From Alphaproteobacteria bacterium (GTDB lineage Bacteria; Pseudomonadota; Alphaproteobacteria; Rs-D84), in assembly GCA_009777955.1 (NCBI GenBank), contig WRKW01000001.1:98255-162254 (forward strand): a DNA stretch of 64,000 nt, in the 5' to 3' direction. This document shows, piece after piece, positions 6,564 through 55,664 of the stretch; position 1 is the first letter of the stretch, and each line of letters opens with the position of its first letter. Made by a program: the position numbers and the translations under genes. Below the pieces are notes generated by a model. That model had not been told where the DNA came from, ran no database searches, and saw only the letters and a list, made by a program, of their open reading frames with translations.

Positions 6564-6605
6564 AATTAAGGCGGTCTTACCAAAGCCTTGGAAACGCGGA
6601 TAAAA

Positions 6606-6630: not shown

Positions 6631-6644
6631 TTTCTGGCTCGGCG

Positions 6645-7655: not shown

Positions 7656-7664
7656 TGTAAAACT

Positions 7665-7913: not shown

Positions 7914-7971
7914 TATAATTCTGTCCGTGAATTAATTGATTTTTACAGACACGAAGATTTATATAAGAAAT

Positions 7972-9612: not shown

Positions 9613-9688
9613 CCAAATATATTTTTGTTGAAATTGCCAATATTAATGTTACACTCCCGCCGGGAGAGATTAACAAAAAGGTAACAAA

Positions 9689-10765: not shown

Positions 10766-11845
10766 ATGAGCATGATATTATTTGATGCGCACGTTCACGC
10801 CCGTGAAGCGTTCACAAAAGAATTCAATGAAAGCGTTCCGGTTTATTCACAGTATTCCGGGGCAGTTTATATGATGAACTTTCCAAAACCTTTGGATCTG
10901 AAATGTCCGTACAAGGCCGGTGAATTAATTTACGAATATTACGATGCCATAATGAAAATCGCCAGAAAGTCTGGAAATCCGAATCATCGCCCGTTTTTGA
11001 TGCCGGTTCTGGCGGAAGATATGGAACCAGAACAACTTTCGCAATTTATAAAACTTATGCGTGATGCAGACGGCGGATTTCTGGCGGGTTTTAAGCTTTT
11101 TCCAAAAGGGCAAAGCACCAACTCTGGATATGCGCCATCCACCGAAAAAGCGCAAAAGCAGATAGACGTGCTTGAAGATATGGATGTGCCGCTTGCGTTG
11201 CATATGGAAGATCCGGATGAACCGAATGTATCAAAAAAAGAACAGTCAGCCATAGACAAGATTCTTCCGCAATTGATAGATAAAGACGGGAAACAACGTA
11301 ATATGAAAATATCCATAGAACACGTTTCTACTCAACATGCTATCGACGAAGTAGTCAGACGTGATCTTTGGTGCACACTTTCTTCGCATCATCTGGGGAT
11401 ATGCCAAGAAATGTTCGGGATACATGATCCGGCAAAGGCAGAAGAAATTCTGCGCGCGCAATATCCATATTTTTACTGCAAACCAATAATTCAAACACGT
11501 GCAAACCAATGGTATTTACATCATTTCTGGATATTCAGCGGGTACAAAAATCTTATGCTGGGTACGGACAGTGCGCCGCATCTTATGGAAAAGAAAATGT
11601 CGGATTCGCCGCCAGCTGGAATGTTTTTGGGTAATGCCGCACACGCTTATAGGGATCTTGTTCTTGATTGTGACCTGACTATGGAGCTTTTGGAAGAGTA
11701 TTCTTTAAATGCGGCACAGTTTTACGGGGTTGATACTGCGACATTATCAAAGGTAAAAATTCCGGGCGGAGATCATTTGAAAAACGTCATGAATATTCGC
11801 CACGTCGCGAGTAAAATGATAAGGGGAAAGCGTCGCGATACATAA
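10766..11845 (+). CDS. pyrC: Dihydroorotase, type II (PyrC-like)
   Basis: DAHVHAR metal site, FKLFP…STNS, IEHVST, LGTDSAPH and QFYG motifs align with E. coli PyrC. Confidence 0.7.
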   Translation: MSMILFDAHVHAREAFTKEFNESVPVYSQYSGAVYMMNFPKPLDLKCPYKAGELIYEYYDAIMKIARKSGNPNHRPFLMPVLAEDMEPEQLSQFIKLMRDADGGFLAGFKLFPKGQSTNSGYAPSTEKAQKQIDVLEDMDVPLALHMEDPDEPNVSKKEQSAIDKILPQLIDKDGKQRNMKISIEHVSTQHAIDEVVRRDLWCTLSSHHLGICQEMFGIHDPAKAEEILRAQYPYFYCKPIIQTRANQWYLHHFWIFSGYKNLMLGTDSAPHLMEKKMSDSPPAGMFLGNAAHAYRDLVLDCDLTMELLEEYSLNAAQFYGVDTATLSKVKIPGGDHLKNVMNIRHVASKMIRGKRRDT

Positions 11846-11928
11846 GTTGTGAATCGATAGTCGTAAGTCGGTAAAGGTCGAATATTATTATTCGACCTTT
11901 ATATTTTTGTGAATGGTTCATTTATAAA

Positions 11929-14031: not shown

Positions 14032-14090
14032 AATGTTATTATAAATTGTATATTGATAAATATCAACATTTGTTGTATATAATCCCAGCA

Positions 14091-16382
14091 ATGAAGAAAT
14101 TTTTAATCTTTTGCTTTTTGTCCCTTATATCGACTGTTGTCACAGCGGCGACAATTTCCCGTATTGATGTCAGCGGCAATCGCCGTATGGATACGGAATC
14201 CGTGCGCTTACTTGCGGATGTAAAGGTCGGCGATAATCTGGATGCTGAGGGTCTTAACAATCTTGCAAAACGTTTAAGAATGTCGGGATTGTTTTCCAGT
14301 GAAAGAGTTACCATGAGTGGTGGGATTCTTAATATAGAAGTGTCCGAAGCACCAGTTGTAAATATGGTTACGATAGAAGGTAACAAAGCAGTATCTACCG
14401 ATGATTTAAGGAAAGAAATCCGCATGCGGGAACGTTCTGCATACGATGAATCTGTAATTGGTGCGGATGTACAGCGTATGTTGACCGTATATCAACGCCA
14501 GGGATATTTCGGCACAAAGATAGAGCCAAAGCGCATAGAGCTGGATGGTGGTCGCGTCAATGTGGTCTATGAAATAAATGAAGGTCACCCAACCCGTATC
14601 CAATCGATAAAGTTTTCTGGTAACAAGAAATTCCGCTCGCGCGAGTTGCGTGGCGCGATATTATCGCAAGAATATTCATGGTGGCGGTTTATGGCATCAT
14701 TCGATACCTATGATGAAGATCGGATACAGTATGATCAACAGCTGTTGCGCCAATTCTATTTGCGTAACGGATATGTTGATTTTCGCATCAGATCCGCTGT
14801 CGGGGTGTTTTCACCCGACCGTAAATGGTACTCTGTTACATTCGATGTGGAAGAAGGGCAACGTTACAGATTCGGCGATTTAAATATTGAAAATCCATTT
14901 CCCGATATAGATACCGAAAAATTGTATTCTAAGTTACAGATGAAACGCGGCGAAATATATAATATAGACAAGGTTGAAGAAACCATATCAGAAATTCGAT
15001 CCGCAGTTGCCGAATATGGATACGCTTTTATAAATGTTGATATAGTTCCGGAAAAGAGTGATGATCTTCGAACTATAAATCTTGTTTTTAAAATCCAAAA
15101 AACCAACCGTATTTATATAAATAAAATTACAATTCTTGGTAACGTTCGTACATTCGATTCGGTTATAGAGCAATTATTTCAAACCCGCAGCGGCGATCCG
15201 TTTTCTTTACAGGATATAGAATTGGGGCGACAGCGTTTGATGCGTACCCGGTATTTTAAATCCGTTGAAATGGTGCCGACACGAATTGCGGATACCAATC
15301 TGATGAATCTGGACGTAAGGGTTGAAGAACAACCGACGGGGGAATTATCCGGCGGTCTTGGCTGGTCAAATATCAACGGTTTTATGATTGATGCCGGAAT
15401 AACAGAAAACAATTTTATGGGTCGTGGACAAATCGTCCAGTTGCGCGGAAGTATAGCGCAGTACCAAAGACAGGTATTATTTGGTTTTACCGAACCGTAT
15501 CTTTTCGGTCGCGCCCTGTCCGGGGGATTCGATATAAATTATACAATGTATAATTATTCTAAATTGGGTTCTTATGGGTATGATCGGGACAGCTTTATGG
15601 TTGGCGGAAGATTGGGGTGGAAGCTGACTGATAACTGGTCGCAGACGTTGCGTCTGACAGCCAGCTTTGATCAGAACTATGACCTGCACACGCCGGGTGG
15701 ATGGCAGTCGGCGAATCTTTATACCCTGGGCACCAGTTTCAGATATCATAATCTGGATACAGATTTTGCACAGCAGACGCATGACGGAATAGTCGCGAAT
15801 CTGGGCGTGGCATACACCGGGTTTGGCAGTACGGAAACATTTATGCGGTATGATGCGGGTATTACAGGGATGCTGAAATTCCTGGACAACCGGTGGCAGT
15901 TGAGATCAGAACTTAATGCCGGATTTTTACAGCCGCTAGAGGAAGAATATATTTCCAGAATGTATCGATACTTCCTTGGCGGGGAGAGTATGCGTGGATT
16001 CAATATAGCGGGCATAGGTTCACGCAACTGGGCATATAGGAATTATGCGTTGGGTGGATTATGGCGACTTCACGGTACAACACAGATGAATTTCCCGATA
16101 TTCATTCCGGATGAATATCAGGTAAAAGGCTTTGTTTTCTCGGACTATGGAATAGTGGGACGTCCACCAAGAAAAGAATTTGATTACACATTGTGCCATC
16201 CTTATTTTGGCTGTACCACACAATCAAACTACATAGACCAGGATTTGCGTGTTTCTTATGGTGTTGGTGTATATTGGAATACCCCGATGGGTCCGATGAA
16301 TTTCAGCTGGGGCTGGCCTTTGAAGTCAAAACCATATGACCGTGAACAATTGTTTCTTTTAAGCTTTGCCACGCAATTTTGA
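14091..16382 (+). CDS. bamA: Outer membrane protein assembly factor BamA (Omp85)
   Basis: Signal peptide MKKFLIFCFLSLISTVVTAA, POTRA repeats, and a C-terminal beta-barrel ending …LLSFATQF. Confidence 0.85.
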   Translation: MKKFLIFCFLSLISTVVTAATISRIDVSGNRRMDTESVRLLADVKVGDNLDAEGLNNLAKRLRMSGLFSSERVTMSGGILNIEVSEAPVVNMVTIEGNKAVSTDDLRKEIRMRERSAYDESVIGADVQRMLTVYQRQGYFGTKIEPKRIELDGGRVNVVYEINEGHPTRIQSIKFSGNKKFRSRELRGAILSQEYSWWRFMASFDTYDEDRIQYDQQLLRQFYLRNGYVDFRIRSAVGVFSPDRKWYSVTFDVEEGQRYRFGDLNIENPFPDIDTEKLYSKLQMKRGEIYNIDKVEETISEIRSAVAEYGYAFINVDIVPEKSDDLRTINLVFKIQKTNRIYINKITILGNVRTFDSVIEQLFQTRSGDPFSLQDIELGRQRLMRTRYFKSVEMVPTRIADTNLMNLDVRVEEQPTGELSGGLGWSNINGFMIDAGITENNFMGRGQIVQLRGSIAQYQRQVLFGFTEPYLFGRALSGGFDINYTMYNYSKLGSYGYDRDSFMVGGRLGWKLTDNWSQTLRLTASFDQNYDLHTPGGWQSANLYTLGTSFRYHNLDTDFAQQTHDGIVANLGVAYTGFGSTETFMRYDAGITGMLKFLDNRWQLRSELNAGFLQPLEEEYISRMYRYFLGGESMRGFNIAGIGSRNWAYRNYALGGLWRLHGTTQMNFPIFIPDEYQVKGFVFSDYGIVGRPPRKEFDYTLCHPYFGCTTQSNYIDQDLRVSYGVGVYWNTPMGPMNFSWGWPLKSKPYDREQLFLLSFATQF

Positions 16383-16446
16383 GAGCATAAGAAAAACAAT
16401 TGCTGATTTATTGTCCTGTTGAACCAAGTTAGTCCCACTTATTCTC

Positions 16447-16476
16447 TTGACTGCATGTGTCGGATTTCCCTATAAT
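16447..16476 (+). promoter_or_regulatory. Sigma70-like promoter (TTGACT-18 nt-TATAAT)
   Basis: Near-consensus -35/-10 hexamers 20 nt upstream of the RBS AAAAGGAG of the small lipoprotein gene. Confidence 0.45.
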
Positions 16477-16496
16477 CAAGGCAAAAGGAGAGGCTT

Positions 16497-16652
16497 ATGA
16501 AGAAAGCTATACGCATGCTTTGTGCTGTGTTTGCCGTACTTTGCATAGCCGGATGCGGTCAAGTATATGATCGCGAACCGGTTGGTGTCGGGTATGACAA
16601 TAACGAATTAAAACTATCCCCTTGCGCCTGTATCAGGGTTTGGCAAGCTTGA
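16497..16652 (+). CDS. Small lipoprotein (51 aa)
   Basis: MKKAIRMLCAVFAVLCIAGCGQ has lipobox IAGC, a strong RBS, and the promoter upstream. Below the ORF-track size cut-off. Confidence 0.45.
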   Translation: MKKAIRMLCAVFAVLCIAGCGQVYDREPVGVGYDNNELKLSPCACIRVWQA

Positions 16653-16748
16653 TGGATTTGTCGCGGGATTTAAAGCGTAAAGCATAAGAAAAAAAATGCA
16701 TTGCGTTTTGCACGCGCAGATTTTGGTTTGCAAGCAAAGCGAGCAAAT

Positions 16749-17462
16749 ATGGACTATCCAAACCATTTCTATACTCCTGTTTTTCCAAAATCGCGCGGAG
16801 TTGCATTCTCGCGTTCGTTGGCGATATGGATTTTAATAACGTTTTTTGCGATCTTCGCTTTGTGCGGTCTTTTGTGGTGGTCTGCCCATTCAGTGCGGCT
16901 TGCGCCGTTTCTGATTTCAATAAATCAAACGACAGGCGAATGGAAAGTTGTATCCGAAAAAACAGGAAACGTACGCCCCATGCCGGGGTGGAGCGTGATG
17001 CAAGAAGCTGTGGTCGGAAACTTTTCAAGACAATGGTTTGAAATACTGGGGACAGAACGCGGCAACGAAGCAAATTGGTGCAAATGCGAACGCCGCAGAT
17101 GCGCACAACCTTTGGCTTCGGATATCAACCAGTATGGTGGCAATATGTGTTTTTTATGTTGTCGTTCGGGCGACAGGCTATATCAGATGTTTGCGGACAC
17201 AGTCCTGTTGGATCGTCGCGCGCGCGCAGCAGATGGCGAAATGTGGGTATTGCGTAATGATCATAATTTTCCGCTTGTAATTGAACCTGTTTCCAGGTTG
17301 GCCGAAGCGGGTGGCCTGTGGCGGGTTTTCGGTACATTAGAATCAAATAAAACAGGTCGAAAAAAAATAGAAGCATACGTGCGTGTGTCGCGGCATTTGT
17401 CTGATTACCCGCTGACACTGGGGTATTACGTTGTTGAATTCAATGCATATCAGGTGGAATAA
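16749..17462 (+). CDS. Membrane-anchored hypothetical protein: short cytoplasmic N-terminus, one TM helix, ~170-aa periplasmic domain
   Basis: Start chosen at MDYPNHF. TM helix LAIWILITFFAIFALCGLLWW. Topology resembles VirB8/LptC-like proteins, but no motif is assignable. Confidence 0.45.
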   Translation: MDYPNHFYTPVFPKSRGVAFSRSLAIWILITFFAIFALCGLLWWSAHSVRLAPFLISINQTTGEWKVVSEKTGNVRPMPGWSVMQEAVVGNFSRQWFEILGTERGNEANWCKCERRRCAQPLASDINQYGGNMCFLCCRSGDRLYQMFADTVLLDRRARAADGEMWVLRNDHNFPLVIEPVSRLAEAGGLWRVFGTLESNKTGRKKIEAYVRVSRHLSDYPLTLGYYVVEFNAYQVE

Positions 17463-18100
17463 TGAAACGAATTATATTTATTTTATCTGTTCTTATCTTG
17501 ATTAGTCTTTCCGGTGCAATGATGTATTTCAGTGGCCTTTTGTTTGACGCGTCCAGAAAAATTGAAATAGAACCATATATTTTCCAGCCGGCGGATCTTT
17601 CAAAAGATAGAATTGGCCGTCCGATGGAGCTGGAAAAATTAAGCAGAGAATATATTTTAGAGCGACTGATAAACAGATTCATGCGCGAATATTTTGATGT
17701 TATCCCGGATGATGAAGAACTTCGCCATCGTAGTGTTCCCGGCAGCGTTCTGCGCGCCATGACTGATCCAGCGACACCCGTGCTGGACAATTGGAACATG
17801 AATGTACGGCCAGAGCTTGCGCGTCTTGCAGAAGCCAGAAAGTTGCGCCGCACGCGGGTTACTAATTTGCGTCTGGCGGGCGAATATTATGTTGTGTCAT
17901 ATGACCTGATTACTTATAATCCAAACGATGTTGACAGTGTTCCGCTTGTCCAACACAACCGGCAGATACAGTTGCGTCTGCGTTTTGAACAAGGGGTGCG
18001 CGATACAGTTGGTGGGGTGCCGTTTGATGCCGGGAAATTTCTTGAATCCGGTGGTGATCCCGCAGCGATATTCAAGTTTGTGGTGGAAGAGGTAAGGTAA
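17462..18100 (+). CDS. Membrane-anchored hypothetical protein (signal-anchor plus periplasmic domain)
   Basis: MKRIIFILSVLILISLSGAMMYF. Its start overlaps the stop of the previous gene (TAATG), indicating an operon. Confidence 0.45.
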   Translation: MKRIIFILSVLILISLSGAMMYFSGLLFDASRKIEIEPYIFQPADLSKDRIGRPMELEKLSREYILERLINRFMREYFDVIPDDEELRHRSVPGSVLRAMTDPATPVLDNWNMNVRPELARLAEARKLRRTRVTNLRLAGEYYVVSYDLITYNPNDVDSVPLVQHNRQIQLRLRFEQGVRDTVGGVPFDAGKFLESGGDPAAIFKFVVEEVR

Positions 18101-18991
18101 TTGATAAGGAATAATAAAGTGGCGAATATAAGAAATTGTTTCAGAAAAGCCATGCGCGAATATCTTGCGCTTTGCTTGCCATTCATTATTTCTTGTTCTT
18201 TGTTTATTTCGGTAACACCACGGGTGCATGCAGATGACTATGATTTCGAATTTGATTCATTCACTGACGATTCATATTCAGACGATGCCTTTTTGGATGG
18301 GGCAATTGAAGATTCCGGCGATTTAGAATTTAACACAACAGGTCCATTATTCCTTAACGAGAATACTAGTTTTGCTGATGTCATACGAATGGATATTGCT
18401 GGTGTCTGGCTTGGGATGCCTTTCCAAGAAGTCCATACTTTGTTTTTCAGGAAAGGTTCTTTGTACGCGCCGCGTAAACATAATTCCATAGTTTATACGA
18501 TGTCAAAAGATTGGAAATATAATTTAGATTACGAATGCCGCCAGCAGAATATAGTCGCACCGACTTTGCTGGCAAATTGTGTAAATTCTTTTGCAAAGAA
18601 GCGTGGGTTATTATATGCGTCAGAATTGCATCTTGCCCGCGAATCGACTGGCGAAACCATAGTGGTGTATTTTACCAGCAATGCAAGTGATAACGTGGTA
18701 TGGCGTGTTATCTATCAAAACGATGCAGATGTTATAGAAGGTGATGCGGAAAAATTTGCAGACCAGCGCGATAAAAAAATATTGGCGTTCTGGCAGGGTG
18801 TTCTGGACAAGTATGGCGCGCCTAATTCGGGTGACGACAAATGGATATCCAGTGACAATGCGTTCGATCCGATGATGACCGCTTTTTACGGTCGTCTAGA
18901 GCTTGCGGACGAAGGCTTGCGTGCGCGGGATGCCGCACTGAATTTTCAGTCAGCGCGTGAAAATTTCAGGGCGAAACCATATTCATTTTGA
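18101..18991 (+). CDS. Secreted acidic hypothetical protein
   Basis: Signal-peptide-like LALCLPFIISCSLFISVTPRVHA followed by a D/E-rich stretch. Third gene of the operon. An alternative start lies at 18152. Confidence 0.4.
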   Translation: MIRNNKVANIRNCFRKAMREYLALCLPFIISCSLFISVTPRVHADDYDFEFDSFTDDSYSDDAFLDGAIEDSGDLEFNTTGPLFLNENTSFADVIRMDIAGVWLGMPFQEVHTLFFRKGSLYAPRKHNSIVYTMSKDWKYNLDYECRQQNIVAPTLLANCVNSFAKKRGLLYASELHLARESTGETIVVYFTSNASDNVVWRVIYQNDADVIEGDAEKFADQRDKKILAFWQGVLDKYGAPNSGDDKWISSDNAFDPMMTAFYGRLELADEGLRARDAALNFQSARENFRAKPYSF

Positions 18992-19061
18992 GGAAAGATT
19001 TTTCTTGCTTCGCGATGAATAAAGCTCTATACTTTTGTCAATACAATCAAGGGAGTACAAA

Positions 19062-20078
19062 ATGGCATGGGAAGAAATAATTTTTCCAAATAACATAAGA
19101 AACATACGACTGTCACGTGGCATTCGCATGACTGCGGTTTCAAAAGAATCTGGCTTGTCTTTATCGGCTATGTCAAAGGTTGAAAAGGGTGTTCGTCGAT
19201 TAAATCAAAAACAGTTGCTGACACTTTGCAAAATATTAGGTTGCAAGTTATCTGATATATTCATAAGGGCCAGCGACGAAGTCGCCGGAGAATGGGAGAT
19301 AGAAATGCAAAGACGGTTAGAGAACAATGAGAACAATGGCCTGAAGATATTCGGTGCGGGCGTTCGTAACCTTCGCAGAAAAGTTGGTAAAACTATTTCC
19401 CAGGCATCTAAAGACGCGAACATGACATTGTCTGTTTATCACAAGATAGAAGTTGGCCAACGTGAATTATATGAAGACGAAGTATCCAATCTTGCAAAGT
19501 CTTTGCACCACACTCCTGATAGTATGTTCCAAGCCATTGCGGAACTTTTCAGAAAAGGCGAACTTACAAATCATATAAGCAAGGTTGAAGAAAAAGTCCG
19601 CAGCGTTTTGACACCGAACTCTTCATCTGGGTTTGGTTTTTCCGGTGCTATTTACGGCGCGAAGATTTATGATTCCGCGCGGAAAAAGCTTGTTCCTGTA
19701 TTCTGTACGCCTGGCGACAAAAATATGGTATTTAAAAAGACCGACGAAAGAATGGTGGTGTCACCGGCAAATTTGGAAAATAATACGGGAATATATGCGG
19801 TAATTCCAAATACGAAGCGGCTTGGATCAATGTTTCCAGTACGCATCCATTTGTTTGTCGATCCGGCGGCCACGGCACAGCCAGGAGATTTGGCCATCGC
19901 ACTGACGGAAGATTTTGACAAGATAGAACCGAATGAGAAGACACATGCGCATGTTGTAATGGTGCGCGAAGATGCAAAAGGAAAGCTCTATGGTGTTCTG
20001 GTCAATCCGGAAGAAAAGATTCCGGTATCAAACGCCGGTGGTCGTCTGCACAAGGTCATTCAGATTGTAGTTGAATAG
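19062..20078 (+). CDS. Transcriptional regulator with two tandem XRE-type HTH domains and a C-terminal beta-rich domain (possibly S24/LexA-like)
   Basis: HTH 1 is IRNIRLSRGIRMTAVSKESGLSLSAMSKVEKG. HTH 2 is LRRKVGKTISQASKDANMTLSVYHKIEVGQ. RBS AAGGGAG before MAWEE. Confidence 0.55.
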   Translation: MAWEEIIFPNNIRNIRLSRGIRMTAVSKESGLSLSAMSKVEKGVRRLNQKQLLTLCKILGCKLSDIFIRASDEVAGEWEIEMQRRLENNENNGLKIFGAGVRNLRRKVGKTISQASKDANMTLSVYHKIEVGQRELYEDEVSNLAKSLHHTPDSMFQAIAELFRKGELTNHISKVEEKVRSVLTPNSSSGFGFSGAIYGAKIYDSARKKLVPVFCTPGDKNMVFKKTDERMVVSPANLENNTGIYAVIPNTKRLGSMFPVRIHLFVDPAATAQPGDLAIALTEDFDKIEPNEKTHAHVVMVREDAKGKLYGVLVNPEEKIPVSNAGGRLHKVIQIVVE

Positions 20079-22975: not shown

Positions 22976-23052
22976 GGATGTGTAGCTCAGTTGGTTAGAG
23001 CGCCTCGTTCACATCGAGGAGGTCGTTAGTTCGAATCTAATCACATCCACCA
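22976..23052 (+). tRNA. tRNA-Val (anticodon CAC)
   Basis: GGATGTG-TA-GCTC-AGTTGGTTA-GAGC-G-CCTCG-TTCACAT-CGAGG-AGGTC-GTTAG-TTCGAAT-CTAAT-CACATCC-A-CCA. Confidence 0.85.
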
Positions 23053-47744: not shown

Positions 47745-47794
47745 TGGTCAGGGCGACTGGAGTCGAACCAGCGACCCCTTGCACCCCATGCAAG
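47745..47794. repeat. 50-bp duplication of the 3' end of tRNA-Pro (distal att site of the integrated element)
   Basis: TGGTCAGGGCGACTGGAGTCGAACCAGCGACCCCTTGCACCCCATGCAAG is identical to 55588..55637. It covers the CCA end, T-arm and anticodon stem-loop of the tRNA. Confidence 0.8.
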
Positions 47795-47918
47795 ATAATA
47801 CGACTTTGTTCTGTTTTGAAAGTTTTTGCGGACTTGTGAAAATCCGCAGAAAACCTTGCACTTCATCACTTTATCACTATGTGGCTCTACGCTCAACTTT
47901 GCGCTCTTTTGAGTGTGA

Positions 47919-47941
47919 TTGTTGAGTATTTGTTGAGTTTT
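47919..47941. repeat. 23-bp direct repeat (TTGTTGAGTATTTGTTGAGTTTT), left copy; itself an internal GTTGAGT-ATTT-GTTGAGT duplication
   Basis: Identical copy at 55520..55542. Both lie inside the element near its ends, so they are possible integrase arm-type or RDF sites. Confidence 0.6.
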
Positions 47942-47966
47942 TTAAGAATAACATAGGAGATATGCC

Positions 47967-49325
47967 ATGTCAAGAATCGGAATCAGTCTAATAAAAACCC
48001 TTGAATACAAGGACAAAACTTACCGTGTGTGGGATGAATCCTTGAAAGGATTCGGGATTGTAGTCCAAAAGGACTCGAAATCTTTTATAATTCAATACCG
48101 GAATAAATACGGGCGGCAAAAATATCTGACTCTGGGGCGCGTCGGTAAAATCGCACCGGACGAGGCCCGCCGATTAGCCGAAAAGAAGTTCGCCGATATA
48201 ACCTATGAACAAGACCCCGCCGCCCAGCGCCAGGAAGACAAAAATACCATGAGCGTCGACGAAATGTGCGATTGGTATATGCGCGAGGGCACAGGCCATA
48301 AAAGAGAAAGCACTATATCGCACAACAGAAGCGCGATAGACCGCCATATAAAGCCTTTGATAGGCCATTTGTCGATAAAGGAAGTCAATAGCGAAATCGT
48401 CACGGGACTTGTCCGTGATATAGAATGCGGTGATAAAATCCGCCGGAAAGAAAAAAGTGAAAAACTGCGTGGCCGGATTTATGTAAAGGGCGGTAAATCC
48501 GCCGCCTCTCACACTTTGGCGTTTCTGGTGACTATTTTTGAATATGCTATCAAACATGGAAAACTGGAAAAGAATCCCGCGCGTGGAATAAAGCGCGCGC
48601 CGGATAATAAAAAAGAAGTGTTTTTAACTATTGACGAGATTCGTGGCTTTGGCGGCCTGCTGGCATATCACAAGGTGCAAAAAGACCATAAGACCGCCAT
48701 AAATCCCATTAAACTGATATTGCTAACCGGTTGCCGCAAGGGTGAAATAGCAAGCCTTAAATGGGATTATATAGACTGGGAAAAACAATGTTTTTATTTC
48801 CCGATTACCAAGACCACCGGGAAACAAGTCCGGCCATTCGGAAAGGGGGCGCTGGAATTGTTGCAAGAATTACGGCGGCGGCGCGATAACAAATCCCCCT
48901 TTGTATTCCCCGCCACCAGGGAATCCAAGGACGGGCATTTGACTGGGAGCGGATTATACAAAGCGCTTAAAGCAATTTTGAATGTTCGGGACGACAATAA
49001 TAGTTTGATTTTTCAAAAGGCCAATTTTGATATTCATGCCTTACGCCATACATTCGCAAGCATGGGCGAGTACATGGGATATAGCCCTTTGGTTATCGGG
49101 GCCCTACTAGGCCATAAGTCGAAAGGTGTCGGCATAACCGGCCGATATATCCACTTTGTAGATAAGTCTTTAATCGCGGCGGCGGATGATATATCATTAA
49201 GCTTCAAAGAAGCCCTGGCCGGCACTAGCACGGAAAATCTAAAAGGAGAATCACAATGTCAGAATTTATCAGATGTACCATTAAACAAGCCTGCGAGTGG
49301 ATTGCCTTCAATTGGGAGCCATTAG
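47967..49325 (+). CDS. int: Tyrosine-type site-specific integrase (P4-like, with an N-terminal arm-binding DUF4102-like domain)
   Basis: N-terminus …YRVWDESLKGFGIVVQKDSKSFIIQYR…. C-terminal catalytic region with …HALRHTFAS… and a tyrosine near the end (…GRYIHFVDK…). RBS AGGAGA. Confidence 0.8.
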   Translation: MSRIGISLIKTLEYKDKTYRVWDESLKGFGIVVQKDSKSFIIQYRNKYGRQKYLTLGRVGKIAPDEARRLAEKKFADITYEQDPAAQRQEDKNTMSVDEMCDWYMREGTGHKRESTISHNRSAIDRHIKPLIGHLSIKEVNSEIVTGLVRDIECGDKIRRKEKSEKLRGRIYVKGGKSAASHTLAFLVTIFEYAIKHGKLEKNPARGIKRAPDNKKEVFLTIDEIRGFGGLLAYHKVQKDHKTAINPIKLILLTGCRKGEIASLKWDYIDWEKQCFYFPITKTTGKQVRPFGKGALELLQELRRRRDNKSPFVFPATRESKDGHLTGSGLYKALKAILNVRDDNNSLIFQKANFDIHALRHTFASMGEYMGYSPLVIGALLGHKSKGVGITGRYIHFVDKSLIAAADDISLSFKEALAGTSTENLKGESQCQNLSDVPLNKPASGLPSIGSH

Positions 49326-49900
49326 ATTATAATTCAGAAAAATTGCGAGTGCTTGGATATAAAGGAAATGACTATGGTTCAAAAATGGATATTGCGAAAC
49401 ATAAGTTAGCCATAGAAATACAAAAGGGGAAAGTAAAACCATTCTTATATGACGCTAATACGGACGAATTGAAAGAAATCTCAACCGGGCCGGATGTGTA
49501 CATAGGCGACGACTTTACAACAATGAATATACAATATGGCATTGGCGCCGCACTTGAATATTCATATCCTGTTGTTAGTTTGTTAAAATTAAAATCTATT
49601 TTCCCCGGCGGTGCCGTGAATAGTGACTCACAGACAATACAACAAAAAGGCGGCAAAGCTAAATCTGAAAAAATGTATACTCCACTATATAGGTATTGTG
49701 AAAGTGTTTTCGATGAAAAACAAAAACTAGACCATAAGTTGAGCATCCCAAAGATTGCGGATATTATTGTGCAAGCAATGAAAACAGGGGCTTATAAAAG
49801 CTCTATCAGTAAAAAAGATTTAGATAACATGGGCGATACAATATTAGTAAAGTCCACCATTTTGAAAGTGTTGCGTGCTTATAAAAAATCTAAAAAATAA
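49256..49900 (+). CDS. Hypothetical protein (element cargo)
   Basis: 214-aa ORF. The true start may lie internally, since the ORF overlaps the integrase 3' end by 70 nt. Confidence 0.35.
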   Translation: MSEFIRCTIKQACEWIAFNWEPLDYNSEKLRVLGYKGNDYGSKMDIAKHKLAIEIQKGKVKPFLYDANTDELKEISTGPDVYIGDDFTTMNIQYGIGAALEYSYPVVSLLKLKSIFPGGAVNSDSQTIQQKGGKAKSEKMYTPLYRYCESVFDEKQKLDHKLSIPKIADIIVQAMKTGAYKSSISKKDLDNMGDTILVKSTILKVLRAYKKSKK

Positions 49901-50065
49901 TAATTCAACAATCTTTGATTTTCTTTGGTTTTTATGTGTAGTCTGCTAGCACACTATACATTCTCTACAAGCAGAGATTCTTATAATTCACCGTTTTCTT
50001 CCCTATTTTTCGCTCGATGATTGCAAGCATCGGGTTTGCAAGTCATACCAACAACGGAGAACAAA

Positions 50066-50335
50066 ATGACAGATGAAAAACTAGAATCGCGAAAAAACGC
50101 GATTTTGCAAAAGGAGTATTGGACGACGGACGAAGCCGAATTTTACCTTATCTATATAAAGGGCATACATCGAACTTCGGCAAGCCTTCGGACCTATATC
50201 ACGAGAGGCGGGGGCCCGGCACATTTCAAGTGGTCGCGGTCGGTCCGATATAACAAGGCGCTAATCGACGAATGGATTCAAAAAAAATTGTCGCCGGCAA
50301 AAACCCATTCATTAGATAAGGGGGTTGAGGCATGA
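50066..50335 (+). CDS. AlpA/excisionase-like small HTH DNA-binding protein
   Basis: …EYWTTDEAEFYLIYIKGIHRTSASLRTYITRGGGPAHFKWSRSVRYNKALIDEWI… matches the AlpA/MerR-type phage transcriptional-regulator pattern (…wR…dIdeWi). RBS ACGGAGA. Confidence 0.45.
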   Translation: MTDEKLESRKNAILQKEYWTTDEAEFYLIYIKGIHRTSASLRTYITRGGGPAHFKWSRSVRYNKALIDEWIQKKLSPAKTHSLDKGVEA

Positions 50336-51213
50336 ATCAGATTCTAATTGACGCATTGCAACAACACGGTATACCTGCACCGGACAGGACTTTGAAAGAT
50401 TCGGGCGTTACCCGCTGGGGTAAAAATTCCCGATATTGGGCCGTTCGGCTCGACCGCTATAATTGGGTTTTTGGTGATTTTTGTTCTGGTATTCGCGCCT
50501 TTGTTTTTCAAAACAACAAGACGGAAAGAACGCCGCAACAAATTGCAAAATTACACCAAAGACTTCAACAAGAGCAGGCGCGCGAACGTGAACGGATAGA
50601 GAATCAATATAATTGTAAGGCGATAATCGCACAACGCGATTTTGATTCTCTGCCAGTGGCAACACCGGCTCACCTATACCTTGCCCGGAAGCAAATCCAG
50701 CCTCACGACGCAAGGTATCAAGCGGAAAGGGATGCCTTGAAAATCCCACTATACGACACGGATGGCAAATTATGGAATTTGCAAACCATTACGGCAGTGG
50801 GCGAAAAGCGATTTTTGCCAGGTGCCAGAAAGAAAGGTTTGTTTTTCCAATTCGGTGAAACCGAAACTTTCGGCCTAGTCATAATTTGCGAAGGCTGGGC
50901 GACCGGCGCCAGTCTGCACGAAGCGACACAGTTGCCTGTCTTTGTGGCCTTTGACGCTGGCAATATCGCACCCGTGGCGGAATCTCTGGTCAAGAAATAC
51001 CCAAAGCACAGAATTATAATCGCGGCGGATAATGATTGGGAGAAAATCCCAAACACGGGCCGCGAAACTGCTATAAGGGTCGCGCGCCAATTCGGGCTTT
51101 CGGTGATAATTCCATATATCACGGCGCCCGGCGCGTCCGATTGGAATGATTTGCATTGTGCCTATGGCCTGGACGAAGTCCGCCGCCAATTTACAAAAGG
51201 AGAAATAATATGA
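50332..51213 (+). CDS. Toprim-domain primase-like protein
   Basis: …FGLVIICEGWATGASLHEA… and …RIIIAADNDWEK… carry the conserved E and DxD of a Toprim fold. Its start overlaps the previous stop. Confidence 0.5.
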   Translation: MNQILIDALQQHGIPAPDRTLKDSGVTRWGKNSRYWAVRLDRYNWVFGDFCSGIRAFVFQNNKTERTPQQIAKLHQRLQQEQARERERIENQYNCKAIIAQRDFDSLPVATPAHLYLARKQIQPHDARYQAERDALKIPLYDTDGKLWNLQTITAVGEKRFLPGARKKGLFFQFGETETFGLVIICEGWATGASLHEATQLPVFVAFDAGNIAPVAESLVKKYPKHRIIIAADNDWEKIPNTGRETAIRVARQFGLSVIIPYITAPGASDWNDLHCAYGLDEVRRQFTKGEII

Positions 51214-52190
51214 AAAATGAAAACAACATGCCCGAAGTGGCAACCTTTAATTACAATATCTATACAGCTGATGAATTGCTGGCATTAAAATTGCCGCCAA
51301 GAGAATGGTTCCTATACCCGCTTATTCCGCAAAAAGGCATATCCATTATATGCGCTGAACGCGGGGCCGGAAAAACTTATTTCGCTTTGGCGATTGCCTG
51401 TGCGGTTGCATCTGGCTTTGGGTTCTTAAACTTCACGGCAGAAACTCCACGCAAGGTATTATACATTGACGGCGAAATGGACGGGAGCGAAATTCAAGAA
51501 AGATTAAATCGGCTGATTGTCGGTTTTAGAACCGAAGACAAGATTGTAAAAACTGAAAATTTGAGTTTGTTTTGTAGCGATTTTCAAGGCGACAATCCCA
51601 TGCCGGATTTAGCAACGCAAGAAGGCAGAGAACGGCTGGAGCAAGAATTAGAAGGTGTAGATTTAATAATTATTGATAATGTCCATTTCCTTTACACGGC
51701 AAAAGATGAAAATAGTTCCGGGACTTGGATTGATTTCAATCGTTGGTCAAGAGAGCAGCGCGGGAAAGGTCGTTCAGTCCTGTGGGTTCATCACACGGGC
51801 AAAGACCCCGAAAAAGGTGGTCGTGGGTCATCTACAATAGAAACGCTGATGAATGCGTCCTTGACTCTGATAGTTCCCAAAGACCACAGGCCGGAAAATG
51901 GCGCATTTGTATTCACAAAATATACAAAAATGCGCGGGGCGACAGGTCAGTCGGTAAGAGGTATTTATACAAAACTCATTTCTTGTGGTGAACTTAACCC
52001 GGTTGGCGAGCAAATGGGATTAAAATGGGAAAAGGCGGAAGCCCCCCAAAGCGAAGAAATAGATGATATTATCAATTTTTTGAAAGAGGGTAAAAATGCC
52101 AAAGAAATAGTTGATATTACGGGAGCATCCAAAACCAAAGTATATGAAGTTAGAAAGAGATACAAAAGAGCAGAAAAATCAAAAGAGTAA
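51210..52190 (+). CDS. RecA-like AAA ATPase (AAA_25/RepA-like helicase-loader type)
   Basis: Walker A ICAERGAGKTYFA and Walker B LIIIDNV. Start chosen at MKNENNM, which has an AAGGAGA RBS. Confidence 0.55.
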   Translation: MKNENNMPEVATFNYNIYTADELLALKLPPREWFLYPLIPQKGISIICAERGAGKTYFALAIACAVASGFGFLNFTAETPRKVLYIDGEMDGSEIQERLNRLIVGFRTEDKIVKTENLSLFCSDFQGDNPMPDLATQEGRERLEQELEGVDLIIIDNVHFLYTAKDENSSGTWIDFNRWSREQRGKGRSVLWVHHTGKDPEKGGRGSSTIETLMNASLTLIVPKDHRPENGAFVFTKYTKMRGATGQSVRGIYTKLISCGELNPVGEQMGLKWEKAEAPQSEEIDDIINFLKEGKNAKEIVDITGASKTKVYEVRKRYKRAEKSKE

Positions 52191-52304
52191 TGCTGCTATA
52201 TGATTTTCCCATTTTCCCGCATATATAGTGGCGGGAATTTGGGAAATTTATAATTGCTTTTTTTGTTGATTTATGATAGAATGCCAGAGTAAATAAAGAC
52301 ATAG

Positions 52305-52335
52305 AACCCCGGCATTAGCCGGGGTGTTTTTGTTT
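52305..52335 (+). terminator. Rho-independent terminator (CCCCGGCATTAGCCGGGG + TGTTTTTG)
   Basis: Strong GC hairpin and T-run after the ATPase gene. Confidence 0.55.
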
Positions 52336-52659
52336 TATCTACTTTTTATTCGGATTCGAAAAGCTTTTTTGCCATAATTTTTGGCATACAGCTTTTTGCC
52401 GCGAACGGTTATCGATTTTACAAAAATATAGTAATAACCGGCGTCTGAATCCAAGCGGGGGGTATCGCTCATGGCGAACTCCTTTTTTGGGGTTGCCCAC
52501 AAATAACTCGTTCAATTCTCGCGAATTTGACAAGCGCCCCAAAAAAGATTATAATTGTCAGTGTTTCCGCATATAATCTCTCATTGGGAATCCCAGCAGT
52601 GGGTTTCTCTGAGATATGTGCACGAAAGGTTGTTATTCCACTAACAACCTTTCAATTTT

Positions 52660-53217
52660 TTAAATTTCCTTTCTTAATCTGTCCTCTCTTGCTTGGGCTG
52701 CAGATGCGGATACTCCGAACAAAGCTTCCATTTCCTTCGCTCTTTTCCCACGTGCTAATTCCGCAGGCATCAACAATTCCGCAGCGAATGTATCGGCTTG
52801 CCATTCTGAATCGCGATATGCTGGTATTTCGGCATTAACATTGTTTCGCGCGAAGACAGCATCTCTTTTGTGGTCCAAAAAGATATGGCCTAATTCATGG
52901 GCGATTGTGAATCTCGCTTGAGGGTCATTTTCGCAAGCTTTGTCGTAAATTTCCTGGCTTATACAGATTGATTTTCGTTCTGGGTCCGTAAAAGCCCATT
53001 TGCCCTGCATACTTGGGTCAGACCCATCAACGACCATAAAACTGTATTCTTCAAATTCGCCTGTGCCGAGTAAATCTAAAATCGATGTAATCGGACAAAA
53101 CACCCTAAAATCACTGAGCGCTTTGGTAAATTTTTCTCTGAACGATTGCGCGACTGCCCTTATATTTTTGATAGACCTTGGACTTACTGGCGCGCCCGCT
53201 CTCCTAATTTGAAACAC
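52660..53217 (-). CDS. ImmA/IrrE family metallo-endopeptidase
   Basis: HELGHIFLDH (HExxH) in a ~185-aa protein. Overlaps the upstream XRE gene, the classic ImmR/ImmA arrangement. Confidence 0.6.
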   Translation of the reverse strand: MFQIRRAGAPVSPRSIKNIRAVAQSFREKFTKALSDFRVFCPITSILDLLGTGEFEEYSFMVVDGSDPSMQGKWAFTDPERKSICISQEIYDKACENDPQARFTIAHELGHIFLDHKRDAVFARNNVNAEIPAYRDSEWQADTFAAELLMPAELARGKRAKEMEALFGVSASAAQAREDRLRKEI

Positions 53218-53605
53218 TGCTATCTCCTTCTGCTGCTTTGTTGAGAATTTTCAACAGTTGCTTCCTTTCTTGTTCCGTCAAATAGTTTGCTTTTCTAGCG
53301 AATGAAAACGCAAGGTCATCTACCCCCTGTTTGGGGTGGTCAATGGTAAACCGTATCGAGGGCTTTCCAGTCGCTTGTTGCTCTCTGGTTTCCACGATTT
53401 TTTGCATCAATTCGCTTTTTTGCTCTGACGACAAGTTGTAAACAGAAGTTAGTCTGTCAAAAAAGCTTACCGGTGTTGTCTTGTTTCCTGTTTCTATGGC
53501 CGACAGGAAGGCCGAAGATACCCCTATTTTTTTTGCCATGTCGTACAACCTGATACCTTCGGACAGTCTAAATATTTTTAGCCATTTCCCAAGTTCTGTG
53601 TACAT
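53204..53605 (-). CDS. XRE-family HTH transcriptional regulator (ImmR-like)
   Basis: LKIFRLSEGIRLYDMAKKIGVSSAFLSAIETGNK HTH_3 pattern. 133 aa. Confidence 0.6.
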   Translation of the reverse strand: MYTELGKWLKIFRLSEGIRLYDMAKKIGVSSAFLSAIETGNKTTPVSFFDRLTSVYNLSSEQKSELMQKIVETREQQATGKPSIRFTIDHPKQGVDDLAFSFARKANYLTEQERKQLLKILNKAAEGDSSVSN

Positions 53606-54068
53606 TTTTCATCTCCTTTGTTATTGTAAAGAGCACAGAATCATACGATTCGATTTTCTTTACATGTCTATCGTAACAAATATTTTAGATAAAATCAACC
53701 ATAAAGTTAATTTAATTCCTTGCGGTTAATTTGAAGAGTTGGGCTTGTACTTTGTGCCCCATATTAACTTTTTTGCTAGTATTTTTTTGCCAGCCCGTTT
53801 ATAATTTCGCTGAATCCATCGGGAGTGGGTTCGGGTCCTTCAAAAGACTGCATCTGAGTGGTAGCCTAAAAACTGCTGCAATCCCGCCGCAATAAATAAG
53901 CACCCCCGGTGCGCTGTTTGTTGCACCCCCGCCAGTATGGTCGGGGAGCCGCCGGTACATAGAACAGGGCTTGCCCGAAAACTGGCGGGGTCATACTCAG
54001 ATGTGATTTTTTGAACTCCCCGACCACCAATTCCCTTTGGTGGTCTTTTTTACACAAAGGAGAATCTT

Positions 54069-54785
54069 ATGAGAAAACTTTTTATTGTTTGCGGCCTGTT
54101 AGTGGGTGCACCAGCATTTGCATATCAATCGCCTTACTATGGCGACTATCAGCCTAATTCACTTAACGATTATTATACACGTGCACCACAACAAGACTAT
54201 TACCAACAAGCTACAAAAGCGACGCAAAAAACCATTACACCTGAAACAAGAGATGGATTTATTGGATTGAAATTACAAAAAAGTTTAGGAATACATTTTG
54301 GAGGTGAGGACAGCCAAATGAAGGGCGAAAAGCCGTTTGGTATAAGCGCAAGCCTTGGAAGCAGGATTAACCCATATGCAAGCATTGAAGGCGAAATACA
54401 AGCCGCCGGTGGAATGTGGGCAGAAACAAGTTTAGCTCGTGCCGAAGTTGCCGCATATTCCATAATGTTCAATGGATATTTCGATTATGAAATAGTTCCG
54501 GGATTTTCCCCTTATGTGGGCGCCGGCCTTGGATTAGGAATCATAAATACGGCAGTAAAGGTTGAACTTCTGGATATTGACGATTCTATGACAACAATGG
54601 GGCTGTCTTATCAAATAATGTTCGGGCTTAATGTCGCACTGTCTGATAGATTCGGGCTAAATATCGGATTCAGATATCAAGATTTCGGGGAAGGCGAAAG
54701 TACCTTAGTAGGAGAAAAGGCCAAAATGGAAGGAACCAATAAAGCATTTTATGCAGGTGTCGCATATAAATTCGGATGGAAATAA
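54069..54785 (+). CDS. Outer-membrane beta-barrel protein (OmpA-like 8-strand / porin family)
   Basis: Signal peptide MRKLFIVCGLLVGAPAFA, alternating amphipathic strands, and C-terminal YAGVAYKFGWK ending in an aromatic residue. Confidence 0.5.
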   Translation: MRKLFIVCGLLVGAPAFAYQSPYYGDYQPNSLNDYYTRAPQQDYYQQATKATQKTITPETRDGFIGLKLQKSLGIHFGGEDSQMKGEKPFGISASLGSRINPYASIEGEIQAAGGMWAETSLARAEVAAYSIMFNGYFDYEIVPGFSPYVGAGLGLGIINTAVKVELLDIDDSMTTMGLSYQIMFGLNVALSDRFGLNIGFRYQDFGEGESTLVGEKAKMEGTNKAFYAGVAYKFGWK

Positions 54786-54786
54786 A

Positions 54787-55134
54787 ATGGGCGTATTTTT
54801 TTCTGTTCTTTTGGCTTTATTAGTTGTTTTTGTGGGGCTGCCAATGGTATTTGCTATCCTACGTGCCATTTATGAAGGCATAACAGAACCGTCGCCAGAA
54901 GAATATAGAAGAGAGCAGTTAAAAGAATGGGGGTTTAGCAGCGAAGAAGAATATCAGGCCCGCCAAGCTGAATTGAGAAAAGAAATGGTAGAGTTCAAGA
55001 AGCGATGTGAGGAGGAACGTGAACGACTCACACGGGAACACCAAGAGTGGTTAAAAAACAAGAGCCTGGAAGAAAAAGCAGAATATGATAGGATTGCTGC
55101 CTATTTTGAAAATGTGACAAAAAAAGATGAGTGA
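54787..55134 (+). CDS. Small membrane-anchored coiled-coil protein, hypothetical
   Basis: MGVFFSVLLALLVVFVGLPMVFAIL TM helix followed by an E/R/K-rich helical region. Confidence 0.4.
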   Translation: MGVFFSVLLALLVVFVGLPMVFAILRAIYEGITEPSPEEYRREQLKEWGFSSEEEYQARQAELRKEMVEFKKRCEEERERLTREHQEWLKNKSLEEKAEYDRIAAYFENVTKKDE

Positions 55135-55519
55135 ATTTTTATAGCGCGGATTTTCTAGGGGATAGGGTGCCCTGTTATCGACGCTTTGAACTTTAACTAC
55201 CCCCTACCTTTGAAGTCGAATCATAACGCATGGCCCTTGAATTGACGCGCGCGACCTGGCGGGTTTTATAGGTGCGCTTTGGTGGCCCTAGATATCATTT
55301 GATATCAGTCTGTTATCATTTTGTGGCACGCAATGGCAAAAAAGATAGGCTTAAGATATTTCGGGCAGTTTTTATATATCAAATAAAAAGAAAATCATAG
55401 TTTTTGCGATTTACGGAACACCATAACATCCGCGGGTTTGCGCGGTTTTTGCTTGACTATTTTACATCAAAATGATACACTCTTAATCATAGAGTTTCAT
55501 ATATATAAAAGTGATGAAG

Positions 55520-55542
55520 TTGTTGAGTATTTGTTGAGTTTT
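55520..55542. repeat. 23-bp direct repeat, right copy
   Basis: See 47919..47941. Confidence 0.6.
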
Positions 55543-55587
55543 ACGAAATCGCAAAAATCAACAAACCTCTGAAAGCCGCAGAAACAT

Positions 55588-55664
55588 TGGTCAGGGCGAC
55601 TGGAGTCGAACCAGCGACCCCTTGCACCCCATGCAAGTACTCTACCAGGCTGAGCTACGCCCTG
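55588..55664 (-). tRNA. tRNA-Pro (anticodon GGG)
   Basis: Reverse complement folds as CAGGGCG-TA-GCTC-AGCCTGGTA-GAGT-A-CTTGC-ATGGGGT-GCAAG-GGGTC-GCTGG-TTCGACT-CCAGT-CGCCCTG-A-CCA. Confidence 0.85.

Follow-up and report, generated by a model that had tools for sequence, protein, structure and literature searches.

A compact integrative element of satellite-like design in a tRNA-Pro(GGG) gene of a gut alphaproteobacterium, probably a member of an undescribed family of small islands

Small islands that combine an integrase, an AlpA-type regulator and a primase are increasingly seen to be phage satellites and to carry cargo for defence or surface modification, and to our knowledge the described families come almost all from Enterobacteria, Vibrio, Firmicutes or cyanobacteria. 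Here we describe an element of this design from an alphaproteobacterium (GTDB lineage Rs-D84), located in a 64,000-nucleotide stretch of metagenome-derived DNA that we refer to as ‘the window’ (GenBank assembly GCA_009777955.1, contig WRKW01000001.1, positions 98,255 to 162,254 of the forward strand; coordinates below are window positions unless a related contig is named). We read it, with a probability of roughly 0.8, as a 7.84-kb self-replicating, site-specific integrative element that resides in a tRNA-Pro(GGG) gene and represents a family of small islands that had not previously been described. The element as such is a small tRNA-integrated island of satellite-like design, and belongs to an already well-known kind.

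A tRNA-integrated genomic island of the Islander type is defined by an intact tRNA gene, a displaced fragment of that gene that forms a direct repeat at both ends, and a tyrosine integrase within the segment so bounded, with an empty attB in relatives or an excised circle as a further mark (PMC4383910). In the satellite P4, the annotated attP (NC_001609) carries adjacent pairs of arm repeats that flank the core on both sides, and the alpha protein is a fused primase-helicase. PICMI elements, found in Vibrionaceae and inserted downstream of fis, are small and are ordered as integrase, integrase-overlapping or contiguous gene, alpA-type gene, primase (of DUF3987/DUF5906 type) and a few accessory genes; the gene that overlaps or adjoins the integrase comes from 13 unrelated families, and its prototype, iolg, is required for excision (PMC10803314). 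A further relationship between an integrating element and its target, tRNA-dependent lysogeny, has been described for actinobacteriophages (PMC10865867).

A repeat search of the window returned a single exact 50-nt direct repeat with a spacing of 7,843 nt, one copy forming the 3′ part of an intact tRNA-Pro(GGG) gene and the other ending 172 nt ahead of the start of a tyrosine integrase gene (Table 1). Both junctions were read, and the identity ends sharply on either side. The repeat begins at the CCA end of the tRNA and reaches as far as the 5′ strand of the anticodon stem, and the inner boundary therefore corresponds to the anticodon stem-loop. By our arithmetic, the number of exact 50-mer pairs expected by chance in 64 kb is ~2e9/4^50 = 1e-21. 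The locus displays the structural components of an Islander-type island, with an intact tRNA gene, a displaced fragment of it as a direct repeat at both ends, and the integrase gene between them. The two copies of the repeat are 100% identical, and every open reading frame (ORF) of the element is intact. The original prediction for this DNA had placed an integrative element of ~7.9 kb in the 3′ end of the tRNA gene, with the last 50 nt of that gene recurring exactly and in the same orientation ~170 bp upstream of a P4-type integrase. ARAGORN and the repeat search bear out the repeat, and the measured distance and the integrase domains recognized by Pfam (Arm-DNA-bind_3 and Phage_integrase) bear out its position; the element likewise stands, with its size corrected to 7,843 bp (one core copy counted). 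Recombination at the anticodon loop thus displaced the host's own 3′ half of the gene, now seen as attR, and the copy brought in by the element restores the tRNA at attL.

A second exact repeat, TTGTTGAGTATTTGTTGAGTTTT, was overlooked in that earlier reading. It is a tandem pair of the 9-mer TTGTTGAGT at a spacing of 11 nt, and it occurs once at either end of the element (47919–47941 and 55520–55542). On the integrase side the pair is separated from the core by 124 nt and lies 26 nt ahead of the integrase start codon; on the far side the distance to the core (at the 3′ end of the tRNA) is 45 nt. Apart from the four 9-mers in these two pairs, the window contains no exact copy. The motif is kept in all of the related elements L088, L089, L090, L092, L115, L117, L136 and L137. 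By analogy with the attP of P4, we read the pairs as candidate arm-type integrase binding sites. An alignment of the left arms of seven related elements further revealed conserved TTTGAT-rich blocks and CTATGTGGC, and a candidate integrase promoter (TTGCAC...TATGTG, ~47856–47885) is located within the same arm of the window element. At the opposite end, an outward-facing promoter lies ~40 nt ahead of the far arm sites; in the alignment, its position and hexamers correspond to TTGATT-17-TACAAT in both L088 and L117, and similar sites are present in L089 and L092. Once the element is circularized, this promoter would read across attP, and through the closed junction could drive the integrase gene. 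A conserved noncoding origin was also sought at the right end among the related elements, where conservation was confined to the arm motif and the region of the promoter. The attachment-site anatomy of the element is well resolved.

Table 1. Features of the integrative element and its tRNA-Pro(GGG) target (window positions, left to right)
Feature	Position	Strand	Remarks
attR, displaced 3′ 50 nt of tRNA-Pro(GGG), CCA end to anticodon loop	47745–47794	minus	Exact direct repeat
P′ arm, conserved blocks and candidate integrase promoter	47795–47966	+	Promoter at ~47856–47885
P′ arm-type sites (candidate), two TTGTTGAGT 9-mers	47919–47941	+	Exact second copy at 55520–55542
Tyrosine integrase, P4-type architecture, 452 aa	47967–49325	+	Pfam, PHROG
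orfX, integrase-overlapping, 214 aa	49256–49900	+	70-nt overlap with integrase gene
Recombination directionality factor (RDF), RdfS/AlpA-type winged helix-turn-helix (HTH), 89 aa	50066–50335	+	Profile search, PHROG
DNA primase (Toprim_3)	50332–51213	+	Start overlaps RDF stop (ATGA)
RecA-fold AAA_25 ATPase, putative replicative helicase	51210–52190	+	Start overlaps primase stop
22-nt inverted repeat, candidate origin or operator	52199–52252		82% complementary
Bidirectional terminator	52306–52325		3′ of helicase gene; terminator scan
Small basic ORF, 45 aa	52335–52472	minus	Last gene of xre-immA operon; called gene in public record; phrog_4533 4e-4
ImmA/IrrE-type M78 metallopeptidase, CapP-like	52660–53217	minus	HELGH motif
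XRE-family repressor, CapH-like	53204–53605	minus	HTH_31/HTH_3
18-nt palindrome, candidate operator	53625–53664		Just upstream of xre start
sRNA-Xcc1-like structured RNA	53940–54032	+	Just upstream of outer-membrane protein gene
Intrinsic terminator of sRNA-Xcc1-like RNA	54022–54051	+	
Small beta-barrel outer-membrane protein, 238 aa	54069–54785	+	Signal peptide, Y/Q-rich N-terminal region, barrel
N-terminal transmembrane segment and charged coiled-coil protein, 115 aa	54787–55134	+	Read from sequence
Outward-facing promoter, TTGACT-17-TACACT with TG upstream	55453–55481	+	Promoter scan
P arm-type sites (candidate), TTGTTGAGT x2	55520–55542	+	
attL core	55588–55637		Within tRNA-Pro(GGG); 3′ 50 nt supplied by element
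tRNA-Pro(GGG), intact	55588–55664	minus	ARAGORN; Rfam tRNA 56.6 bits

The related elements were found on metagenomic contigs reached through homologues of the primase and the integrase. Along with the exact arm motif, they (L088, L089/L090, L092/L093, L115, L117, L136 and L137) encode integrases that are 50–65% identical, and RDFs that are 46–62% identical, to those of the window. The motif occurs twice in every one of them, at 125–143 nt (integrase side) and 77–88 nt (far side) from the anticodon loop of a tRNA. An exact motif held in a fixed geometry around integrases that are only 50–65% identical is therefore tied to the integrase, rather than being a product of chance or of segmental duplication. 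The original prediction had itself named a duplication unrelated to the integrase among the findings that would overturn it. Such a duplication, or an assembly artefact, has nothing in its favour as the source of the 50-bp repeat beyond the metagenomic origin of the assembly; against it stand at least eight related elements that show the same geometry of tRNA fragments and arm motifs, as well as two projects that independently assembled the same structure. The window is 100% identical to an ENA metagenome contig of 187 kb over a 21.4-kb stretch and 99.99% identical to a JGI contig from another project, and another JGI contig runs through attL and on into the element. Because the structure recurs in independent assemblies it is not an assembly artefact, and we consider this explanation to be effectively refuted. 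A search of JGI metagenomes with the arm motif returned 18 loci, of which only two (L124 and L121) belong to the family and the rest look unrelated.

Comparison of these elements indicated that one module, consisting of integrase, orfX-position gene, RDF and arm sites, is joined to two unrelated replication modules. In L088, L089/L090, L092/L093 and L115 the order is integrase, small ORF, RDF, Toprim primase and AAA_25 protein (40–65% identity to the window proteins), whereas L117, L136 and L137, with integrases of 59–63% and RDFs of 46–62% identity, carry a Prim-Pol/PriCT_2 protein and a DUF3987 protein instead. L088 and L137 differ in their replication modules, yet they share a 150-aa cargo gene at 95% identity; modules are therefore being exchanged within the family, and the near-identity of this gene indicates recent recombination between its elements. 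Two further loci on these contigs are recorded here as separate observations. L088 encodes an 824-aa AAA_13 ATPase (1.2e-107; positions 1535–4009 of that contig) between its integrase and orfX-position genes, and AAA_13-domain proteins are common in anti-phage or abortive-infection systems. In L137, a type II CRISPR-Cas locus (Cas9, Cas1 and Cas2; 1556–5821) adjoins the attR side of the element.

The family also differs in what becomes of the target tRNA. The window element, L088, L117 and L137 restore tRNA-Pro classically. In others the host tRNA gene is split at the anticodon loop, as seen in L092 and L115 (Val, tac), L089 and L090 (Val, cac) and L136 (Pro, tgg; in this case with the element inserted in reverse orientation relative to its tRNA), and an intact tRNA of the same anticodon is located inside each of these elements. 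When checked for L092, L089 and L136 (elements at 7644–17290, 1354–9480 and 9782–19089 of their respective contigs), the outer tRNA halves rejoined in silico into perfect cloverleaves. We considered the full tRNA in L092 and L089 as the integration target, as the classical model would have it, and rejected it, since the outer halves pair perfectly through the acceptor and anticodon stems to rebuild a cloverleaf and since the full tRNA is not the outermost feature, the arm motif being located past it. The tRNA-splitting elements resemble tRNA-dependent lysogeny in having a short core in the anticodon loop, a host tRNA that is not restored and a tRNA of their own; unlike the actinobacteriophages in which it was described (PMC10865867), they are ~8–9.5-kb non-phage islands of Alphaproteobacteria. 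The window element differs from that strategy, in that it contains no internal tRNA and its target is restored by the 50-bp duplicate. Elsewhere in the window, an intact and unoccupied tRNA-Val(cac) gene (22976–23052) shares the anticodon of the L089/L090-type target.

The original prediction had listed AlpA-like, Toprim primase, AAA_25, ImmA/IrrE with XRE, and beta-barrel genes between the repeats, each of which Pfam confirms. The integrase matches Arm-DNA-bind_3 (1.9e-11), Phage_integrase (4e-19) and phrog_1 (1.8e-56), and retains all of its catalytic residues (R257, H357-x-x-R360, H383 and Y394). It is 21.5% identical to P4 Int and at most ~27% identical to phage integrases, and no second element or paralogous integrase was found within the window. 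The small HTH protein falls under the cut-off for HTH_17 (19 bits) and matches the excisionase family phrog_66 at 7e-4; seven of its eight orthologues do match HTH_17. A profile built from the eight orthologues matches RdfS of ICEMlSymR7A (PDB 8dgl; E 6.8e-8) and, weakly, AlpA (PDB 8c3t; E 0.24), and on the strength of these profile matches the protein is best called an RdfS/AlpA-type excisionase. The IntS/RdfS pair of ICEMlSymR7A (PMC11963761) offers a close parallel, as an alphaproteobacterial P4-type integrase and winged-helix RDF that act at a tRNA gene; unlike that integrative and conjugative element (ICE), the window element has no conjugation genes and is ~60 times smaller.

The gene that overlaps the integrase, orfX, had been regarded as a non-core gene, an assignment that probably does not hold. 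It has no match in Pfam, PHROG, PADLOC or NCBIfam and appeared to be an orphan in a word-indexed protein search, but an exhaustive HMMER search found a homologue, P0122, that is 42% identical over its full length. The alignment with P0122 includes the first 31 residues, which supports the start codon at 49256 and with it the 70-nt overlap with the integrase gene. P0122 sits in L117 between an integrase and an excisionase (62% identity for each), beside a different replication module, so that the gene is inherited along with the recombination module and not with the replication module. We conclude that orfX probably belongs to the recombination module and not to the cargo. At this position the remaining sister elements carry unrelated ORFs of 168–248 aa, several of which overlap the integrase gene; a relationship between orfX and this group was considered and rejected (hhalign probability 0.7%). 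AlphaFold2 models of orfX reached a pLDDT of 47 when built on its sequence alone and of 68 when built on three sequences. By analogy with iolg of PICMI, orfX probably takes part in excision, which would be carried out by the RdfS/AlpA-type excisionase.

From the excisionase gene onward, ATGA overlaps join the RDF gene to the primase gene and the primase gene to the helicase gene, and the three therefore form one translationally coupled operon. The primase matches Toprim_3 (1.9e-13) and the DNA primase family phrog_2249 (1.7e-67), and residues E187, D233 and D235 are invariant in the family alignment. It shares 34% identity with the primase portion of P4 alpha (151 aa aligned) and ~30–34% with phage and with plasmid TraC-type primases. 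The neighbouring ATPase matches AAA_25 (7.5e-30), DnaB_C (weakly) and PHROG primase/helicase families, with phage DNA helicases among its matches (25–28% identity) and a weak match to mad8 in PADLOC. After excision, the circular element would be copied by these two proteins.

The affinities of the replication module bear on whether the element might be an integrative plasmid-like or mobilizable element, one that persists as a small replicon and spreads by co-resident conjugation, vesicles or transformation without any phage. Such a life style would fit the 30–33% identity of the primase to plasmid TraC-type primases and its 32% identity to the toprim protein of plasmid pTAO100, an excisionase whose closest match is RdfS of an ICE, and outer-membrane cargo of the sort often seen on plasmids and ICEs. 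However, no relaxase, origin of transfer (oriT), type IV secretion system or coupling protein domain was recognizable in any ORF by Pfam, PHROGs and NCBIfam (although a cryptic oriT may be present), and none of the family's contigs was identified as a free circle, since the tRNA repeat explains why the ends of L117 and L088 overlap. We regard this explanation as unlikely. Plasmid pTAO100 itself (6.4 kb, NZ_AP014837.1, from Candidatus Nitrosoglobus terrae; L095) encodes a toprim protein that aligns with 97% of the window primase; its gene adjoins a DUF927 gene, and the same Toprim-DUF927 pairing occurs in integrase-linked islands (L111–L114).

The remaining genes form a regulatory pair and a cargo region, which diverge from one another across a 463-nt spacer. 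The metallopeptidase matches Peptidase_M78 (1.5e-13) and PADLOC capP (2.6e-18), and the repressor matches HTH_31 (2.4e-7) and, across its full length, PADLOC capH (2.8e-6). A CapP-like peptidase and a CapH-like repressor are therefore present as a pair, as they are in a CapH/CapP-regulated operon. The pair has no counterpart in the sister elements, where the outer-membrane gene directly follows the helicase gene. The arrangement resembles CapH/CapP, ImmR/ImmA and DdrO/IrrE (bioRxiv 10.1101/2022.04.27.489752), in which an XRE repressor and an M78 peptidase are likewise divergent from a presumed target operon; it differs from CapH/CapP in that the operon comprises a small RNA, an outer-membrane protein and a membrane protein, with no recognized immune effector. 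By analogy with these systems, we infer that DNA damage or phage infection would lead to cleavage of the repressor and to de-repression of the cargo operon. In the search for defence cargo that had been suggested earlier, the CapP/CapH-like regulators were found and no defence effector was recognized, PADLOC giving no match for the outer-membrane protein, the coiled-coil protein or orfX. A separate feature, on the + strand and thus opposite to the two genes that border it (immA and the 45-aa ORF), is a sigma-70 promoter that matches the consensus at 12/12 positions (TTGACA-17-TATAAT, 52527–52555); a 12-bp hairpin and T-run follow ~70 nt further on (terminator-like site at 52624–52653), and the region (52527–52660) may encode a small RNA of ~95 nt.

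At the start of the cargo region, the sRNA-Xcc1-like RNA scored 33.6 bits against RF02221, below the gathering score of 53. Its minimum-free-energy fold has the topology of the family (z = -3.2), and copies are present in L137 (10994–11085, 39.1 bits) and L136 (20560–20653, 34.3 bits), both also below 53. An alignment of these sequences, although a small sample of three, retains the structure with eight compensatory pairs. The RNA stands at the start of the cargo region in both the window and L137. Relatives of sRNA-Xcc1 have been reported from integron cassettes, phages and genomic islands. The outer-membrane protein matches OMP_b-brl (3.5e-16), and also Opacity, OmpA_membrane, NCBIfam Rick_Adr (1.5e-9) and, in PDB, NspA (3e-3), which identifies it as a small barrel of the OmpX/Opa/NspA/Adr type. 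It is 34–36% identical to the protein at the equivalent position in L088; in other relatives this place is taken by an autotransporter or a lipoprotein-like protein, and a small polytopic membrane protein comes next. In the window, the coiled-coil protein gene begins 1 nt past the stop codon of the outer-membrane protein gene, and its product has no significant match in Pfam, PHROGs, PADLOC or NCBIfam. The cargo would be expected to alter the cell surface, by way of adhesion or exclusion. In the independent JGI assembly of the same strain, contigs JGI24701J34945_10000693 and _10014342 end at window positions 54001 and 55407, so that they break inside the small RNA-like sequence and resume in the right arm, with the genes for the outer-membrane and coiled-coil proteins unassembled; this gap could be the result of low coverage or of strain variation.

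When set beside the known satellites, the element works like an island of the P4, PICI or PICMI type, yet it does not conform to the definition of any of them. The original prediction had likened its organization to P4 satellites, PICIs or small islands, a judgement that is fair: the attP mirrors that of P4, and the gene order mirrors that of PICMI. With P4 (NC_001609) it shares an integrase with an arm-binding domain, a tRNA target, tandem arm repeats on both sides and a small HTH protein of the AlpA/Vis type, and a P4-type integrase and AlpA/Vis-type regulator are both present, though distant from those of P4 itself. Unlike P4, its integrase gene is located at the end of the element far from the intact tRNA (and its product is only ~22% identical), and of the fused primase-helicase only the Toprim part has a homologue, the helicase being a separate RecA-fold protein. 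Neither sid, psu, delta, epsilon, cI nor cos was found in the element by Pfam and PHROG, and tblastn detected no similarity to the P4 genome. The integrase, AlpA-type regulator/excisionase and self-encoded primase-helicase module are those of Gram-negative PICIs; unlike PICIs, the element yielded no match to terS, ppi, rpp or genes of capsid morphogenesis when its 10 ORFs were compared with Pfam and PHROGs. Prochlorococcus tycheposons (bioRxiv 10.1101/2020.12.28.424599) likewise combine a tyrosine recombinase, tRNA targets, partial tRNAs, primase/helicase genes and niche cargo, and some of them also have no packaging genes, but they occupy different hosts and build large islands whereas the window element is single and compact.

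The likeness to PICMI (PMC10803314) is one of layout. The window element is similarly small and similarly devoid of capsid-remodelling or packaging genes, its integrase, alpA-type and primase genes are co-localized in the same order, and orfX, which overlaps the integrase gene, occupies the position of iolg/icg. It departs from PICMI in having a Toprim_3 primase with a separate AAA_25 protein, in its location in tRNA-Pro of an alphaproteobacterium rather than beside fis in Vibrionaceae, and in its XRE/ImmA switch. It may nevertheless be a minimalist satellite of the PICMI type, in which a helper phage would induce the excisionase, the element's own primase and helicase would replicate it, and the helper's capsids would package it with no remodelling genes of its own. 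We hold this possibility only tentatively, as somewhat less than an even chance. The shared gene order (with its integrase-overlapping gene), the size of 7.8 kb and the lack of transfer genes speak for it, as do the phage homologues of the primase and the closest integrase relatives (L117, L136 and L137), which carry Prim-Pol together with DUF3987, one of the two domains that define PICMI primases. Arguing the other way, there is no known helper phage, IMG/VR contains no element of the family, no pac, cos or terS was found, and the primase type and location of the window element are those given above. The absence of capsid, packaging and conjugation genes implies that a helper is needed for cell-to-cell transfer. 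Hitch-hiking on a helper phage is favoured because the order of integrase, overlapping gene, alpA and primase is that of PICMI, and this is our leading guess, albeit one that we would place a little short of an even chance.

We next consider whether the element is mobile at all. Several observations weigh against the reading of the locus as an active integrative element. Its GC content is the same as that of its flanks; look-ups of exact flanking-gene proteins found only occupied or truncated contigs, with the locus occupied in both samples; and a degenerate pattern for attB, attP, attL and attR, verified on the window itself, had no match in JGI metagenome contigs. Among GTDB species representatives searched by ribosomal protein S9 (57–79% identical), none has a tRNA-Pro beside rpsI, these genomes being too distant to be syntenic. 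The arm motif had no match in IMG/VR, and a scan with the primase profile gave 15 loci there, the eight that were checked having only the primase in common; the family is therefore missing from IMG/VR by both primase and arm motif, and its packaging in virions is without support. The Pfam and PHROG searches of the ORFs detected no terS, capsid, terminase, cos, relaxase or secretion genes. A Foldseek comparison of the orfX model with PDB returned nothing below E = 1 and no functional clue. The mobility of the element is inferred from sequence, as are the roles assigned to the cargo, to orfX and to the candidate promoters and origin.

These points would fit a domesticated or decaying island, immobile and kept for its outer-membrane cargo and stress-responsive regulation, and so would the finding that every sampled copy is occupied. 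Yet the mobility genes remain whole and keep their catalytic residues, each of the four 9-mers in the arms is an exact copy, and the 50-bp repeats remain 100% identical even though the displaced copy is free of tRNA selection. Moreover, only two or three samples of the strain exist, so that the absence of polymorphism carries little weight. We judge domestication to be very unlikely. The intact genes, perfect repeats, exact arm sites and modular exchange argue for an active or recently active element. As for its host, the ribosomal protein S9 encoded beside the tRNA is 65–79% identical to those of animal-gut metagenome-assembled genomes named Candidatus Enterousia or Alphaproteobacteria bacterium (65% for Cu122P5bin52), by which measure the host is an uncultured gut alphaproteobacterium of a Candidatus Enterousia-like lineage; NCBI entries identical to the integrase and the primase are likewise assigned to an Alphaproteobacteria bacterium.

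The features of the family can also be drawn together in a broader reading, which we consider quite unlikely to hold as a whole. Under it, these elements would be capsid-less minimalist satellites (or replicons borne by vesicles or helpers) with an envelope-remodelling accessory function, an exclusion or abortive module under a CapH/CapP-type switch, and a capacity to switch tRNA strategy. The conserved placement, straight after the replication genes, of an outer-membrane protein gene and then a gene for a small membrane protein may reflect such remodelling; the cassette of the window, with its sRNA-Xcc1-like RNA under a damage- or phage-sensing CapH/CapP-type switch, may be an inducible superinfection-exclusion or abortive module; and lineages of the integrase family may have switched between restoring their target tRNA and destroying it with a replacement carried along, in which case tRNA-dependent integration would extend from actinobacteriophages to non-phage islands of Proteobacteria.

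The window element by itself is mainly solid annotation rather than a surprise, and its interest lies mostly in the features seen at the level of the family. That family provides a tractable set of elements, with unusually clear attachment-site anatomy, in the poorly known gut Alphaproteobacteria. Exact arm sites conserved across integrases of 50–65% identity make predictions of attB and attP, and tests of heterologous integration, straightforward, and the family as a whole offers comparative material on changes of integrase target and orientation, on the swapping of replication modules and on integration that disrupts a tRNA gene.

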